From an uncultured Candidatus Actinomarina sp. (GTDB lineage Bacteria; Actinomycetota; Acidimicrobiia; Actinomarinales; Actinomarinaceae): a DNA stretch of 64,000 nucleotides. The position numbers were made by a program, and so were the translations under genes. The notes beneath the pieces were generated by a model. The model was not told where the DNA came from. It did not search any database and saw only the letters and a program-made list of their open reading frames with translations. Each line of letters opens with the position of its first letter. Position 1 is the stretch's first letter. The stretch spans positions 16,720 to 80,719 of the forward strand of contig CACODT010000004.1 in NCBI GenBank assembly GCA_902626065.1, given 5' to 3'. This document shows positions 44,797-48,673 of the stretch, piece after piece.

Positions 44797-45252
44797 ATGA
44801 AAGTTGTTTTGCAAAGAGTTAAAACTGCATCTGTAAAAGTTGATAATAATGAAATTTCAAAAATTGATAATGGATTATTACTTTTATGGGGTATCGAAAA
44901 AGGTGATGTTGAAACAGATATTGAAAACCTTACAAGAAAAATAATCAATCTTAGAATTTTCTCTGATGAGCAAGGAAAAATGAATAAATCAATAGTTGAC
45001 ATTAGTGGAGAGATATTATTAGTTAGCCAATTTACCTTAAATGCGAATATTCAAAAAGGAAACAGGCCATCGTTTATCAATTCTGAAGAACCAGATATTG
45101 CAGAAAAAATGATTGAAAAAGTCGCAATTGAACTTTCAAATTCTTTAACTGTAAAACAAGGAATATTTGGTGCTTTTATGGAAGTTTCACTTATTAACGA
45201 TGGCCCCTTAACAATGTTTATAGAGTCTAAAGACGGAAGATTAGTTACTTAA
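44797..45252 (+). CDS. dtd: D-aminoacyl-tRNA deacylase
   Basis: MKVVLQRV, LRIF, LVSQFTL, GNRPSF, FGAFMEVSLINDGP. Confidence 0.95.
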   Translation: MKVVLQRVKTASVKVDNNEISKIDNGLLLLWGIEKGDVETDIENLTRKIINLRIFSDEQGKMNKSIVDISGEILLVSQFTLNANIQKGNRPSFINSEEPDIAEKMIEKVAIELSNSLTVKQGIFGAFMEVSLINDGPLTMFIESKDGRLVT

Positions 45253-45677
45253 GCTGACTGAAGTTTTATATTTTTCTTGCCTTCTTCATTGCTTAGTTTT
45301 TTATCAAGATAATATTCTTCACCAGCCCATAAATGAAGACCTAGTCCTAATTTCATCGCACATCTTTTAAATGCATCTGACTCAGCATGTTTTGCATTAG
45401 TACCGTCACTTCCTTGATCATGCTCAACATCACCAATAGATGTAACTGTTACAGATTTTCCATCAATTTCTAAAGTTAATTTGCCAAAACAGCCAACAAC
45501 TTTACCAGTTTTTTCTTGCCTTATTAATTCAACGACCTCCCAATTAAATGGTCCACAGACCTCTAGTAATCTTTGAGTGATTACAGAATGAGGTATGTAA
45601 TTTCCAAATTTTCCTTTAGGTGCAGGTTTTATCCACTCATCTGGAAATTGTCTTGCTAATTCGTATAATTGGTTCAT
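45249..45677 (-). CDS. Rad52/Rad22-like (phage Sak-type) single-strand annealing protein
   Basis: YIPHSVITQRLLEVCGPFNWE and KHAESDAFKRCAMKLGLGLHLW match the Rad52 core (Y....V..RL..V.G...W; K.A.SDA.KRAA...G.G..L). Confidence 0.72.
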   Translation of the reverse strand: MNQLYELARQFPDEWIKPAPKGKFGNYIPHSVITQRLLEVCGPFNWEVVELIRQEKTGKVVGCFGKLTLEIDGKSVTVTSIGDVEHDQGSDGTNAKHAESDAFKRCAMKLGLGLHLWAGEEYYLDKKLSNEEGKKNIKLQSA

Positions 45678-46237
45678 CTCTTCCTTTCTTTATGATTTAA
45701 TTCTTTAGCCCATTTTGGTGCTGATAAACTGTTTGTGTTTATACTTTTCAATTCTGCTTTTTCTTTCCATTCTTTGTATAAAAAAGTATCACGTATCATT
45801 TCAGGATTAATATTTTTAAATTTAGAAAAAGCATCTAAACCTTTTAGCTTTGGAACAAATGTGGTTCCTAGTATTGAAAGTAAAGAATCAATTAATTGAT
45901 CATTGTCATCAGATTTTGCAATTAACCATTCGAGCAACTTTCTTAAATTATGAACCTTCCAACTATAGGATTTATTAAACACAAAAACTTCATCCCCAAG
46001 TCTAATTGGCCCATTTTTATCTATATTTCGGGCAATATTTTGATCATTAAATGTTTTAATATTTGAAGACACATTTTTGACTGTTGAGCTGGTGTTTCTT
46101 GCAATCCATAATGATTCTATATCGTTTGTTTTTGATAATTTCTCACCATACTCGGTTACTGTAATGTCAAAATCATCAGTTTCTTGATATGATATTTCCT
46201 TTGTTAGAGACAAAATATTGTCGAGATTATTGTTCAT
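45674..46237 (-). CDS. Hypothetical protein coupled to the Rad52-like gene
   Basis: AAGGA RBS upstream; 4-nt overlap with the downstream gene; family not recognised. Confidence 0.7.
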   Translation of the reverse strand: MNNNLDNILSLTKEISYQETDDFDITVTEYGEKLSKTNDIESLWIARNTSSTVKNVSSNIKTFNDQNIARNIDKNGPIRLGDEVFVFNKSYSWKVHNLRKLLEWLIAKSDDNDQLIDSLLSILGTTFVPKLKGLDAFSKFKNINPEMIRDTFLYKEWKEKAELKSINTNSLSAPKWAKELNHKERKR

Positions 46238-46251
46238 AGATTGTTCCTTGG

Positions 46252-46368
46252 TTAAGCAGCTTTTCTATAATCTTCATGACATTTGCAGTTATCGCTATGT
46301 TTGTAGCAAATAACAATTGCTTCTAAGCCACATGATTTTAGAATATTTTCAATTTTTTTATTGTTCAT
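46252..46368 (-). CDS. Putative 38-aa Cys/His-rich small protein
   Basis: My translation: MNNKKIENILKSCGLEAIVICYKHSDNCKCHEDYRKAA. It ends 14 nt before the next start. Not in the ORF track; RBS weak. Confidence 0.45.
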   Translation of the reverse strand: MNNKKIENILKSCGLEAIVICYKHSDNCKCHEDYRKAA

Positions 46369-46450
46369 ATATGCAACTTTAGGAATTACCTACGACAAAA
46401 AATTAAAAAATCATACATGTACAAAATTTTTTTAATAATATGACCATGTA

Positions 46451-47713
46451 ATGACAAATTCAGATTTATTCGAATCAAATATGTATAAAGAAGTCATAAA
46501 ACAATATGATGAAGTCACAGAGTTTATAAATTTAGATTCAAATATTAGAGAAAGATTAAAACTTCCACAAAGAGCATTGACTGTTACGTTTCCGTTCAGA
46601 AGAGATGAATATGATGAAGTAGAAACTGTTGTAGGTTATAGAGTCCAACATGTTTTATCAATGGGTCCTACAAAAGGTGGAATCAGATATGCTTCTAATG
46701 TTAATTTAGGTGAGGTGACCGCTCTGGCAATTTTAATGTCTTGGAAGTCAGCAATTGTTGGCTTACCCTATGGTGGAGCAAAAGGAGGAGTCGCAATAGA
46801 TCCAACTCCACTTTCAAGACCAGAAAAACAAAGAGTTACCAGGAGATATACTGCAGAACTCCTCCCATTAATTGGTGTTGACAAAGATATTCCTGGACCC
46901 GATCTTGGCACAGATGAGCAAACAATGGCTTGGATAATGGATACTTATAGTAATTTTGTTGGTTCACCAAAGCCTGGAATTGTTACTGGTAAACCTGCAT
47001 CACTAGGTGGATCAATTACTAGAAGGGAGGCTACAGGCAGGGGTGCTGTAGCTATTGCTAATGCAGCGTTAGATAAATTAAAAATGAAATATCAAGAATC
47101 TACAGTAGTTATTCAAGGATTTGGAAATGTTGGCCGTTATGCAGCTCTCGATTCATATGAGAGGGGAGCAAAAGTAATAGCAGTCAATGATTTGGGTGGT
47201 GCTACCTATAACGAAAATGGATTAAACATACCTGAACTTTTTAAACATATCGCAAAAAATAAATCGGTAAGCAACTTTGATGGAGGAGACAATTTCCAGG
47301 ATGATATTCTTGAAATGCAATGTGATATATTAATTCCTGCTGCAATTGGTGGAGTAATCAACTCTTCAAATGCAGAAAATATTCAAGCAAAAATAATTGT
47401 AGAAGGTGCAAACTCCCCAACAACTCTTAATGCTGATAAAAAACTTAGAGATAATGGAGTCATATTAATTCCAGACATACTTGCAAATGCCGGTGGAGTT
47501 ACTGCTAGTTATTTTGAATGGGTTCAAAATACTCAAAATTATCTTTGGAAAGAAAAAGAGTTACATGAACGTTTAATAGATGTATTAACGTCAGCCTTTG
47601 AAGAAGTATGGGTTATTTCTGAAAAAAATAATACTGATTTAAGAACGGCAGCCTTAATAAAAGGTATTAAAAAAGTTGCTGCAGCAAAACTAACTCGAGG
47701 ATTATTTCCTTAA
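46451..47713 (+). CDS. gdhA: Glutamate dehydrogenase (Glu/Leu/Phe/Val dehydrogenase family)
   Basis: GPTKGGIRY, GGAKGG, VTGKP, REATGRG, QGFGNVG, EGAN, PDILANAGGV. Confidence 0.9.
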   Translation: MTNSDLFESNMYKEVIKQYDEVTEFINLDSNIRERLKLPQRALTVTFPFRRDEYDEVETVVGYRVQHVLSMGPTKGGIRYASNVNLGEVTALAILMSWKSAIVGLPYGGAKGGVAIDPTPLSRPEKQRVTRRYTAELLPLIGVDKDIPGPDLGTDEQTMAWIMDTYSNFVGSPKPGIVTGKPASLGGSITRREATGRGAVAIANAALDKLKMKYQESTVVIQGFGNVGRYAALDSYERGAKVIAVNDLGGATYNENGLNIPELFKHIAKNKSVSNFDGGDNFQDDILEMQCDILIPAAIGGVINSSNAENIQAKIIVEGANSPTTLNADKKLRDNGVILIPDILANAGGVTASYFEWVQNTQNYLWKEKELHERLIDVLTSAFEEVWVISEKNNTDLRTAALIKGIKKVAAAKLTRGLFP

Positions 47714-48673
47714 AATTTTTTCTATCGTCGATACGGTGTTATTCTTTTTTTCATTAACATCGTCCAACATAATCTTTATTGCATTTAGATTTGTATTTTT
47801 AAGTGGACTATTTTCCGGTAACTTTTCTAAACCTCCAACCAAATCTATTGCTTCTAATGTGTCATTAATTTCATTTATTACACTGTTGTATTTTTCTAAT
47901 TTATCAGTGTTTGGTACGTTATTATTAAATTCTGGACAAATTGGTTTGTAATAACACCAGTTACATAATGCATTTTTGTTGGTAGGAAATTCTTTATTTT
48001 TTATAGCCTTTTTTATATTATTCCAAATTTCAATAATCTCATTTTCAGCATCTAAGAGCATTTGTTTGCTTACTTTCAATGTATGAATGGTTGAATTTTG
48101 TAAATATATTAGTTTTAGTTCACTTGGTGTTTCACCTAGTTCTTTTTCTATTAATAATGCATATAGTTTAAGTGCAAAAAATCTTGACTCTTTATATTTT
48201 GAACTTGGTGCCTTCCCTGATTTGTAGTCAACGATAATTAGATTCCCATTAGAATCACGGTCCATTCTATCAAGTATCCCTCTTAGGTTGACATCTTCAA
48301 TTGTTCCTCTTACCCATCTTTCTCGTTCTAGCGGCTCAAATTTTGATGGATTTTCTAAATTTAAATAATTTGATAATAATTGAAGTGCATCCAGTCCCCA
48401 TGCCCTTTCATCCTCAACATTGTCAAATAAGTGTACATGCTCATCATTAGATCGAACATCTGTCCAAACTTTTCTAAACAAGTTGTGTAAGTTTTCAGTG
48501 TTTCTTTCTTCTTTTGGAAGATCGAATAATTTTTCTAAAGCTTCATGGACTGTTGTTCCCTTTGCCTGTACTTCATTTGTAGGTTCTTTTATTTTGTCAA
48601 TATTGGCAAATTTAAACTGCCTAGGGCAAGTTTTAAACTGTGATGCTCTCGATGGAGACAAATTTTTTAACAT
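47702..48673 (-). CDS. PD-(D/E)XK nuclease, RecB/Cas4-like, with four-Cys (Fe-S) motif
   Basis: LSPSR...CPRQF, GTTVHEAL, RGILDR, IVDYKSG, LYA, CNWCYYKPIC; about 70-aa C-terminal extension. Confidence 0.88.
   Translation of the reverse strand: MLKNLSPSRASQFKTCPRQFKFANIDKIKEPTNEVQAKGTTVHEALEKLFDLPKEERNTENLHNLFRKVWTDVRSNDEHVHLFDNVEDERAWGLDALQLLSNYLNLENPSKFEPLERERWVRGTIEDVNLRGILDRMDRDSNGNLIIVDYKSGKAPSSKYKESRFFALKLYALLIEKELGETPSELKLIYLQNSTIHTLKVSKQMLLDAENEIIEIWNNIKKAIKNKEFPTNKNALCNWCYYKPICPEFNNNVPNTDKLEKYNSVINEINDTLEAIDLVGGLEKLPENSPLKNTNLNAIKIMLDDVNEKKNNTVSTIEKILRK

Follow-up and report, generated by a model that had tools for sequence, protein, structure and literature searches.

Introduction

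Bacterial annealases of the Rad52 type are regarded as tools of phages, and DdrA of Deinococcus radiodurans is the best-known exception that is encoded by a host. DdrA is a single gene that coexists with RecFOR, and it has been described as protecting 3' ends. The phage proteins include Sak of the lactococcal phage ul36, PHROG 3290 and 1097, and the annealases of the mycobacteriophage Marvinvirus, for example gp68 of Clarkson. Their genes come last in a small recombination module and are overlapped by the upstream gene, which in Clarkson is annotated as an exonuclease. The Rad52 fold is also found in yeast Mgm101, a compact annealase serving a small genome, and in the N-terminal domain of eukaryotic RAD52. 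The bacterial RecO protein is related to these systems by its job. [quoted passage not shown] In M. tuberculosis, recO is upregulated by PafBC (PMC8151990). Borrelia burgdorferi possesses RecA without RecFOR, and another annealing protein, the unrelated ResT, has been proposed to supply the RecO-like function there (PMC4914115).

The subject of this study is a three-gene operon in a window of 64,000 nucleotides, which is the whole stretch of DNA analysed, from an uncultured Candidatus Actinomarina. Candidatus Actinomarina is a very abundant ocean bacterium with an extremely streamlined genome of about 1 Mb. The annealase of the operon shares the Pfam family and the fold of the phage proteins, and it likewise stands at the end of its module with an overlapping gene upstream. 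Many homologues from uncultured actinophages have the same short, core-only architecture and about 50% identity to it, and the nearest protein of a cultured phage shows 28% identity. In contrast to the phage annealases, however, the Actinomarina gene occupies a fixed chromosomal site, is core to a whole bacterial order and appears to be under a host promoter of the DNA-damage type. Its partner, unlike the upstream gene of Clarkson, is not a recognisable exonuclease. Like DdrA, it is a host-encoded member of the Rad52 family with an apparent tie to the DNA-damage response. The Actinomarina system differs from it in being a three-gene operon, in belonging to a RecFOR-less lineage and in its PafBC-type signal.

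With RecO, especially the mycobacterial protein (PMC3575820), the operon shares the proposed job, that is, annealing of single-stranded DNA (ssDNA) and possibly RecA mediation. With mycobacterial recO it also appears to share the regulatory class (PMC8151990). On the other hand, RecO combines an OB fold with a helical domain and a zinc finger. The Actinomarina protein has a Rad52 beta-beta-beta-alpha core, and there is no homology between them. We infer that the relation to RecO is one of function, not of family. In Borrelia, annealing is a secondary activity of ResT, which is a telomere resolvase, whereas in Actinomarina the candidate is an annealase operon of its own, derived from a phage. 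The closest structural counterparts are Mgm101, which resembles the Actinomarina protein also in being a compact annealase of a small genome, and the N-terminal domain of RAD52. Neither the two genome papers on Actinomarina nor the surveys of annealases that were searched mention the operon or the accompanying loss of RecFOR.

Results

The features of the locus are collected in Table 1. The three proteins of the operon comprise 367 residues in total. The first and second ORFs are separated by a gap of 14 nt, and the stop codon of the partner overlaps the start codon of the annealase by 4 nt (ATGA). The operon is flanked by dtd on one side and by gdh on the other. A sequence-only reading of the window had described this minus-strand arrangement, and its coordinates, gap and overlap proved to be exact. 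It had also remarked on the absence of an integrase or a structural gene nearby. All flanking ORFs within about 4 kb on each side of the operon are metabolic or housekeeping genes, and neither integrase nor phage structural genes occur in that range. Since all 52 complete loci of the Actinomarinales preserve the order and the junctions of the operon, its ORFs are not chance frames.

Table 1. Features of the annealase locus and its neighbours (positions in the window)
Feature	Position	Strand	Remarks
dtd	44797-45252	+	Pfam Tyr_Deacylase 4.8e-53
142-aa Rad52-type annealase ORF (predicted)	45249-45677	-	third gene; ORF list
187-aa partner ORF	45674-46237	-	second gene; ORF list
38-aa Cys/His ORF	46252-46368	-	first gene; 4 Cys and 2 His; ORF list
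PafBC-type promoter (predicted)	46376-46397	-	TGTC 46397-46394, 12-nt spacer, -10 TAAAGT 46381-46376
gdh	46451-47713	+	Pfam ELFV_dehydrog 2.3e-74
PD-(D/E)XK / Cas4-like Fe-S nuclease, 323 aa	47702-48673	-	Pfam PDDEXK_1 1.6e-36

The annealase matched the Pfam family Rad52_Rad22 (PF04098) with 30.0 bits against a gathering cut-off of 20.3 (E 5.9e-7). The match spans residues 13-133 of the protein and positions 15-151 of the 153 positions of the profile. PHROG 3290, 'single strand annealing protein', was matched at 4.6e-12, and precomputed PF04098 hits are present on many homologues. Sequence-only searches against the PDB aligned the protein neither with RAD52 nor with any other entry. An AlphaFold model was obtained with a pLDDT of 89.1 and a pTM of 0.81. 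It displays a beta-beta-beta-alpha arrangement with strands at residues 45-53, 60-71 and 74-83 and a helix at residues 91-109, and the final 8 residues are disordered. When the model was compared with the PDB by Foldseek, the best 11 matches were all Mgm101 or human RAD52 with a probability of 1.00 (E 4e-6 to 1e-3, TM 0.46-0.60), at a sequence identity of roughly 18-20%. The residues K96, S100, D101, K104, R105, G111, G113, H115 and W117 are invariant in the alignment. The first five of them do not vary among 28 homologues and are placed on the helix 91-109, where they may correspond to K152/R153 in the ssDNA-binding groove of human RAD52.

The Rad52 fold that the sequence-only reading had expected for this protein is therefore borne out by the model and its structural matches. 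Its remark that 142 aa is the size of the annealing core alone was correct, but this size is the norm for the family, since the phage homologues are mostly 131-145 aa. Taken together, profile and model point to a predicted Rad52-fold annealase of minimal size, a 'mini-Rad52'. Neither alignment nor model reveals an obvious RecA- or SSB-binding extension, and the C-terminal half, which carries the Rad51- and RPA-binding sites of eukaryotic Rad52, is missing. To act as a mediator, the protein would have to rely on a different interface, which the partner might provide.

The partner is always found directly upstream of the annealase throughout the genus, with 37-80% identity, and its gene is preceded by an AAGGAA Shine-Dalgarno sequence. 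Its conserved features are an RLGD hairpin, a DTF motif and a basic C-terminal PKWAxxLxHxERK(R/K). In the wider family, T151 and F152 are the only invariant residues besides M1, whereas R79 and D150 vary slightly. The partner did not match any family in Pfam, PHROG, NCBIfam or the PDB. Its AlphaFold model (pLDDT 76) is mostly helical, and a Foldseek search with it gave no match in the PDB or BFVD. A Pfam hit to DpnD_N (E 0.011) appeared in one of 18 family members and was attributed to chance. A hidden PD-(D/E)XK exonuclease was also considered and rejected, because the pattern D135...E156-x-K158 of the Actinomarina sequences is lost among more distant family members, the model is mostly helical and those two databases gave no structural match. 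A catalytic set of acidic and lysine residues is likewise lacking. As none of the nuclease families was matched in profile searches, the two genes do not constitute an exonuclease and annealase pair of the Red alpha/beta or RecET type.

In phage-like contigs, distant relatives of the partner are encoded next to an annealase of the Rad52-like or the RecT kind. Partner and annealase pairs are present in the phage-like contigs L025, L039 and L037, and a partner and RecT pair is present in the short contig L024. The partner thus appears, from its sequence relatives, to belong to an undescribed family that accompanies both types of annealase in phages. The partner profile also matched P0212 (1655 aa), a secreted protease, but this was an artefact of repeats. 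In phage contig L013, the annealase is preceded by a 246-aa ORF, which was rejected as a relative because BLASTP showed no similarity to the partner. This ORF displays a faint PD-(D/E)XK hint.

The peptide encoded by the first ORF has exactly 38 codons in all of the 15 loci examined. Its core C-x2-H-x3-C-x-C-H (C21, H24, C28, C30, H31) is invariant in the same 15 loci, the Cys/His motif was found in 52 of 52 loci, and the C-terminus is AA. The peptide had no match in the family profile libraries, and no counterpart of it was found directly upstream of the partner gene in phage modules. SWIM zinc-finger ORFs in two phage modules were not accepted as homologues because the order of their motif differs. 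The motif suggests that the peptide is presumably a metal (zinc) binder.

The operon was present in 22 of 24 genomes of the genus Actinomarina and in 56 of 61 genomes of the order Actinomarinales. In all of the 52 complete species-level loci of the order, it forms part of an invariant six-gene block, PDDEXK-gdh-peptide-partner-annealase-dtd. The dN/dS values are 0.085 for the annealase, 0.37 for the partner and 0.36 for the peptide, compared with 0.29 for dtd, in a comparison where synonymous sites are near saturation (pS about 0.65). All three genes are under purifying selection, and the constraint on the annealase is unusually strong. The operon is a core gene set of the order at a fixed single-copy site. 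A decaying remnant confined to a single genome, against which the sequence-only reading had been staked, is incompatible with the presence in 56 of 61 genomes, the 52 intact loci and the annealase dN/dS.

The kinship of the module with phages was observed in several ways. The closest annealase homologues outside the clade, with about 50% identity, reside in actinophage contigs that carry tape measure, portal, holin, integrase and WhiB genes. In the annealase tree, the Actinomarinales sequences constitute a single clade (SH-aLRT 90), and the neighbouring clades contain confirmed phage-like contigs. The phage origin that had been proposed for the module is thus supported by the homologues in phage contigs, the recurring partner and annealase pair and the tree placement. 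The three genes are very probably a domesticated, damage-linked annealase operon of phage derivation.

The distributions of RecO and of the Rad52-like gene were counted across 301 genomes of the class, composed of 36 Actinomarina and 265 others. RecO was found in none of the 36 Actinomarina genomes and in 262 of the 265 others. On the contrary, the Rad52-like gene was found in 33 of the former and in 2 of the latter. RecR was seen in 0/25 Actinomarina genomes compared with 16/16 class relatives, and RecF over the cut-off gave the same counts. RecO_N was absent from all 61 Actinomarinales genomes, and the recF slot between dnaN and gyrB is empty. None of the three operon proteins is homologous to RecO (TIGR00613 / PF11967). 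RecA is kept in 25 of 26 Actinomarina genomes. In the genome under study, the one checked for AdnAB, no helicase-nuclease fusion was found, and SSB was not located by ad hoc sequence patterns in this assembly of 89% completeness. The opposite patterns of RecFOR absence and Rad52-like presence within the class are newly described here, and as they come from one clade, they represent a single evolutionary event, not a replicated correlation. The supplements of the two Actinomarina genome papers hold no entries for rec genes. Reduced genomes have often lost RecFOR, and here too the loss could be a matter of streamlining with no relation to the operon.

The predicted promoter is separated by 7 nt from the ATG of the 38-aa ORF, and therefore a leaderless transcript is predicted. 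In 52 of 52 Actinomarinales loci, the motif TGTC-N12-TA-N3-T stops 6-8 nt short of the start codon, and neither the GTC triplet nor TAnnnT varies among these promoters. A -35 element is absent at canonical spacing. Just 11 nt lie between TTGTCA and the -10 element, a distance that a -35/-10 promoter does not allow. In the PafBC consensus as published, tGTCgg(N10)tA(N3)T, there are -26 and -10 elements with no -35 (PMC8635444). The spacing of the operon promoter is identical to this consensus, and the 'gg' positions are not conserved in the promoters of this AT-rich lineage. As a positive control, the same geometry was found upstream of a chiZ-like LysM gene in 12 of 12 genomes. Genome-wide, the leaderless PafBC-type motif was not enriched, with 7 hits against 1-9 for scrambled cores.

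Further candidate sites were rejected. A motif 6 nt before the ATG of the neighbouring nuclease is kept in 2 of 46 other species and was ascribed to chance. Another one upstream of nrdR in this genome is not conserved, and a conserved TTGTC downstream of the recA SOS box has a spacing of 14 nt, not 12. A candidate regulator is encoded at C1:54048-54875 of this genome. This 275-aa protein contains a WYL domain (43.4 bits against a cut-off of 21.8), and its best PDB matches are 7p5x, 9fnd and then 6sj9, which is annotated as PafBC. A 284-aa ORF that overlaps it has a sub-threshold WYL match (17.3 bits), and TatC and a DEAD-box helicase come next. This gene order is presumably equivalent to the mycobacterial pafBC-tatAC-helY. 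The region C1:158292-160224, considered as a pafBC pair, actually encodes NAD-dependent epimerases. Judged by domain and gene order, the genome encodes a PafB-like regulator in a pafBC-tatC-helicase locus. [quoted passage not shown] The repair role proposed for the operon from its sequence gains support from the conservation of this promoter in all 52 loci.

Discussion

The proposed explanation begins with the ancestor of the Actinomarinales, which would have taken the three genes from an actinophage recombination module. As a core gene set, they would then have been vertically inherited. The annealase is expected, from what RAD52, Mgm101 and Sak do, to assemble into rings, to hold ssDNA in a basic groove and to anneal complementary strands. 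The operon would be transcribed as a leaderless mRNA from the PafBC-type promoter, and because of this promoter type it would probably be induced when ssDNA accumulates. Since RecF, RecO and RecR are absent from the order and AdnAB from this genome while RecA is kept, the likeliest job of the operon is that of RecO. It would anneal ssDNA for the repair of gaps and double-strand breaks, and possibly help RecA onto ssDNA. As RecA is present, such a mediator role is as possible as RecA-independent repair. The explanation as a whole, an actinophage-derived and PafBC-linked core operon doing the job of RecO, is favoured by a little over an even chance. The replacement of RecO function, taken by itself, is close to evenly balanced, if slightly on the doubtful side. 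A bolder version would be that a Rad52-type annealase, a cofactor and a zinc microprotein displaced the whole RecFOR pathway and possibly compensate for the absence of AdnAB. RecA would then work with a Rad52-type mediator, as Rad51 does in eukaryotes, and the 187-aa family would be a general cofactor of Rad52-like and RecT annealases, for example an adaptor to SSB or RecA. This version is rather unlikely to hold in full.

The operon might instead be an added repair module for RecA-independent single-strand annealing or for DdrA-like protection of 3' ends in UV-exposed surface cells, with the loss of RecFOR as coincidental streamlining. Host proteins of the Rad52 family with such roles are known, DdrA among them, and a mini-Rad52 without an obvious RecA- or SSB-binding extension would suit them. 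The damage-type promoter fits equally well. However, RecF, RecO, RecR and AdnAB were not detected although RecA is kept, and another known presynaptic route is not visible. Besides, homologous recombination is strong within the genomospecies of Actinomarina, as Lopez-Perez et al. infer (PMC7771536), and the constraint on the annealase (dN/dS 0.085) is unusually strong. An added module is therefore judged unlikely.

A role in gene exchange would have the annealase integrate incoming ssDNA or promote relaxed recombination, leading to the replacement of flexible islands and to population cohesion. Very strong recombination-driven cohesion and cassette swapping have been reported for the Actinomarinales (PMC7771536), and PMC3945230 describes relaxed recombination between diverged sequences by phage Rad52-like recombinases. 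Nevertheless, the PafBC-type promoter of 52 out of 52 loci points to a damage response, and competence or uptake genes are not linked to the operon, which makes this role improbable. Still less credit is given to an interaction with phages, in which the captured module would serve defence or superinfection exclusion, for example by hampering actinophages with related annealases. The closest relatives are indeed phage genes, the partner family otherwise occurs in phage-like contigs, and WYL regulators also control defence systems according to PMC10693628. However, defence genes are usually variable and located in islands, whereas the operon occupies a fixed single-copy core site under strong purifying selection without island-like variability, and it shares its promoter type with a chiZ-like damage-response gene. 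An inert prophage remnant between two housekeeping genes, for which phage ancestry and small size could be cited, is effectively refuted by the intact frames in 52 of 52 loci, dN/dS values far below 1 with synonymous sites near saturation, the conserved promoter and the extreme streamlining of a genome of about 1 Mb.

At this locus, a Rad52-type annealase is among the strictly conserved core genes of a whole marine order, abundant and streamlined. The gene appears to be wired into the DNA-damage regulon of a host that retains RecA but lacks RecFOR and apparently AdnAB. Should the operon provide the presynaptic and annealing functions that are missing, it would show clearly that a phage module can displace a near-universal bacterial repair pathway. 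It would also help to explain how strong homologous recombination is sustained by a 1-Mb Actinomarina genome, and would offer a compact three-protein system for studying the cooperation of Rad52-type proteins with RecA-family recombinases. The partner family is a candidate for a new annealase cofactor and may be of interest for actinobacterial recombineering.

The PD-(D/E)XK nuclease next to gdh is ancestral, being present in 16 of 16 class relatives with 30-50% identity over residues 1-252. It is syntenic with the operon wherever the Actinomarinales locus reaches far enough. This nuclease belongs to the context, outside the acquired module and in a separate transcription unit, and it is a candidate producer of the ssDNA substrate.

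Organisation of the operon and fold of the annealase

The ORF listing bore out the sequence-only reading, in which three minus-strand ORFs with a short gap and an overlap lie between dtd and gdh. Metabolic genes surround the operon in the window, which is contig C4:16720-80719 of a genome (G000) 1.02 Mb long with a G+C content of about 32%.

Positions of the operon, its neighbours and the pafBC-like locus
Feature	Position	Strand	Remark
dtd	44797-45252	+	flank
142-aa annealase ORF	45249-45677	-	ORF listing
ATGA overlap, 4 nt	between 187-aa and 142-aa ORFs	-	
187-aa partner ORF	45674-46237	-	ORF listing
Gap, 14 nt	between 38-aa and 187-aa ORFs	-	contains AAGGAA
38-aa peptide ORF	46252-46368	-	ORF listing
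gdh	46451-47713	+	flank
Stand-alone PD-(D/E)XK / Cas4-like Fe-S nuclease	47702-48673	-	invariant neighbour of operon
pafB-like (275 aa), pafC-like (284 aa, sub-threshold WYL), tatC, DEAD-box helicase	G000 contig C1:50471-54875		

The Rad52-like identity proposed for the 142-aa protein was confirmed. The Pfam Rad52_Rad22 match was 30 bits against a gathering score of 20.3 (E 5.9e-7), and PHROG 3290, 'single strand annealing protein', was matched at 4.6e-12. The AlphaFold model, built with 28 homologues (pLDDT 89.1, pTM 0.81), places three strands against one long helix. In the Foldseek search against the PDB, yeast Mgm101 and human RAD52 account for all 11 top matches (probability 1.00, E 3.8e-6 to 1.1e-3, TM 0.46-0.60); plain sequence searches did not reach these structures. 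K96, S100, D101, K104, R105, G111, G113, H115 and W117 are invariant. Most homologues, phage members included, are 131-145 aa long, and thus the length of 142 aa is typical of the family. Some phage-type homologues in the annealase alignment (A2: P0102, P0072, P0083 and others) have long C-terminal extensions ending EQEPF or EEAF. These ends are reminiscent of the acidic-aromatic SSB tail of bacteria, whereas the Actinomarina annealases end in a conserved L-Q/K-S-A.

The small ORF has exactly 38 codons, and its C-x2-H-x3-C-x-C-H motif is invariant in 15/15 loci. In G000 the peptide and the partner begin in a similar way (MNNKKIENIL and MNNNLDNIL). This is probably chance, because the likeness is not conserved in the divergent clade (MKEKEILKLLE and MKDLIWDIAK).

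Conservation and probable phage ancestry

The annealase was present in 22/24 incomplete genomes of the genus and in 56 of the 61 genomes of the order, a second genus included. The scan of species-representative genomes gave 53 loci with 79-93% identity, every one belonging to Actinomarina, OCS155 or Actinomarinales; the next matches drop to 56% identity or less. The order PD-(D/E)XK nuclease, gdh, peptide, partner, annealase, dtd was identical in 52/52 complete loci, and the same arrangement was kept in a 155-kb contig despite an annealase of only 73% identity. The dN/dS values were 0.085 for the annealase, 0.37 for the partner, 0.36 for the peptide and 0.29 for dtd (pairwise Nei-Gojobori, with synonymous differences near saturation, pS ~0.65). 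The alternative that the block is a decaying remnant confined to one genome is excluded by this invariance and by the low dN/dS, indicating purifying selection, in all three genes. According to a 2026 preprint, Actinomarina species do not share a conserved gene order (bioRxiv 10.64898/2026.04.03.716425); contrary to this, the six-gene block is identical at species level (L040-L092).

Annealase homologues of about 50% identity were found in three contigs with phage genes: one with tape measure, amidase and WhiB (L013), one with Mu-type portal and holin (L022), and one with tape measure, integrase and WhiB (L023). WhiB is a pointer to actinobacterial hosts. Among cultured phages, matches came solely from Marvinvirus mycobacteriophages (28% identity); one of these has an annotated exonuclease gene upstream of the annealase. 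The Actinomarinales annealases made up one short-branched clade (SH-aLRT 90) in a maximum-likelihood tree built from 80 sequences, within a polytomy that also contains three clades with these phage contigs. Strong matches to the A2 profile among 301 class genomes (146 genera) were restricted to Actinomarina. The most economical reading is a single transfer from an aquatic actinophage pool to the Actinomarinales ancestor, although the tree alone leaves the direction unfixed. The earlier suggestion of a phage origin is supported by the phage homologues, the recurrence of the partner-annealase pair in phage-like contigs and the single clade.

One Actinomarina MAG with 5% contamination (G019) has three further Rad52-like copies of 40-47% identity (contigs C30 and C36; L112, record PBPX01000048, MAG RS345). 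They are frames of 197-296 aa on separate contigs, and in the tree one clusters with a Gammaproteobacteria MAG copy. These copies are probably binned phage DNA.

A PafBC-type promoter

Upstream of the operon, TGTC-N12-TA-N3-T was found in 52/52 loci, ending 6-8 nt short of the start codon. No variation occurs in TTGTC or the -10 element, and the spacer is otherwise diverged. The spacing is exactly that of the published PafBC motif, tGTCgg(N10)tA(N3)T, which combines a -26 element, whose GTC is strictly conserved, with a -10 element and lacks a -35 (PMC8635444). An ordinary -35/-10 promoter is ruled out because TTGTCA lies only 11 nt from the -10 element. The loose motif showed no genome-wide enrichment in G000, and two other occurrences there were rejected as unconserved. 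The LysM gene upstream of nrdR serves as a positive control: in 12/12 genomes it has a leaderless PafBC-type promoter whose motif lies 6 nt from the ATG and whose extended sequence is closely similar to that of the operon. This gene is the counterpart of mycobacterial Rv2719c/chiZ, a classic RecA-independent, damage-inducible gene.

The PafB-like protein of G000 (275 aa) has a WYL domain. The closest matches to its HTH are chains of 7p5x and 9fnd in the PDB, which we take to be mycobacterial PafBC-RNA polymerase complexes; it also matches 6sj9, annotated as PafBC. The gene order of its locus is presumably that of the mycobacterial pafBC-tatAC-helY locus. A LexA-type box, T[CA]GAAC-N4-GTTC[GT]A, lies upstream of recA in 14/14 genomes. 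Therefore, this 1-Mb genome seems to have kept both actinobacterial damage regulons. In M. tuberculosis, AdnAB and recO are upregulated by PafBC (PMC8151990). A DNA-damage gene cluster at G000 contig C6:4855-13279 holds an SRAP (YedK-like) peptidase ending EVPF, nrdR, the chiZ-like gene and recA.

Overall, a phage recombination module that was domesticated once, is selected across the order and stands behind a host DNA-damage-type promoter is well supported, and the operon is very probably a domesticated, damage-linked annealase operon.

Loss of RecFOR and possible replacement of RecO

The distributions of RecFOR and the Rad52-like protein are complementary.

Recombination proteins in Actinomarina and other Acidimicrobiia (genomes with a match)
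Protein (profile)	Sample	Actinomarina	Other class genomes
RecA (PF00154)		25/26	
RecO (TIGR00613)	genus, one single-contig 1.01-Mb genome included	0/26	
RecO_N (PF11967)	whole order	0/61	
RecO (TIGR00613)	relatives	0/25	16/16
RecO (TIGR00613)	class-wide	0/36	262/265
RecR (TIGR00615)		0/25	16/16
RecF (TIGR00611), over cut-off		0/25	16/16
Rad52-like (A2 profile)	class-wide	33/36	2/265 (weak)

The RecF search in Actinomarina returned only Walker-A fragments of 36-46 bits against a 172-bit cut-off. The recF slot of G000 is empty: contig C3:50280-57722 reads dnaA, dnaN, a 4-nt overlap, a 96-aa ORF, gyrB and gyrA. The deletion at this origin is clean, with no recF remnant. In a class relative, AdnA/AdnB-type helicase-nuclease proteins adjoin the PD-(D/E)XK gene; used as queries against G000, a single 89%-complete genome, these proteins retrieved no more than the stand-alone nuclease and a plain UvrD/PcrA helicase. 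SSB was sought in G000 by ad hoc sequence patterns and not located.

In the absence of RecO, the operon would take over its role in annealing and perhaps also in RecA mediation. Such a replacement is plausible because mycobacterial RecO acts in RecA-dependent HR and RecA-independent SSA and has been likened to Rad52 (PMC3575820), because Rad52, RecO and UvsY are regarded as equivalent in function and a comparable substitution has been proposed in Borrelia, which lacks RecFOR (PMC4914115), and because strong homologous recombination is inferred in Actinomarina populations (PMC7771536). Against it, reduced genomes often lose RecFOR, and the mini-Rad52 has no recombinase- or SSB-binding extension. 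Moreover, the Actinomarina genomes are all one clade, so that the pattern is a single event, a gain plus one set of losses, rather than a replicated association. Functional replacement of RecO by the operon is given a nearly even chance, the larger share of it for a true RecA-mediator role, which taken alone is rather unlikely.

Rad52, RecO and RecR are unmentioned in the Actinomarina genome papers (PMC7771536; bioRxiv 10.64898/2026.04.03.716425) and the sister-order paper (PMC12008989), and a 2010 phage recombinase survey (PMC2896510) mentions neither RecO, DdrA nor bacterial (non-phage) genomes. The class-wide RecF/RecO/RecR contrast, the AdnAB result, the exact PafBC geometry with its conserved positive control and the pafBC locus are new here.

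The partner protein and the neighbouring nuclease

Searches of Pfam, NCBIfam, PHROGs and the PDB gave no match for the partner. The best of its five AlphaFold models, mostly helical, reached pLDDT 76 (the rest 38-47) and had no structural neighbours in the PDB or BFVD. Distant relatives matching over the full length, 170-206 aa long, came from a profile search through 1.8 billion representative proteins. Genomic context was inspected for six, two being uninformative. The relative is followed by a Rad52-like gene in L025 (4-nt overlap; Pfam 27.9 bits) and L039 (PHROG 3290, 8.7e-9), is preceded by one in L037, and is followed by a RecT-family gene in L024 (PHROG 2780, 1.6e-24). Therefore, the partner family accompanies annealases of at least two families. 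In none of the 27 non-Actinomarinales genome loci did the partner lie 4 kb or less from the annealase. In the wide alignment the invariant positions are limited to T151 and F152, besides M1, R79 and D150 being nearly so. Because so few residues are invariant, the partner may have a structural or adaptor role rather than an enzymatic one.

The phage modules have no 38-aa peptide. In two of them, on phage-like contigs carrying the partner family, an 86-aa SWIM zinc-finger protein (Pfam SWIM, 25-27 bits), different in motif order from the peptide, is encoded a few genes upstream (L026:1306-1566 and L039:200-460). Modules of this kind may regularly be accompanied by a small zinc protein.

The stand-alone nuclease was found in 16/16 class relatives with 30-50% identity, and is thus ancestral rather than co-acquired with the operon. 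Its orthologue adjoins AdnA/AdnB-like genes in class relatives, genes not found in G000. The Actinomarina nuclease has about 70 extra C-terminal residues, the relatives aligning to residues 1-252 only.
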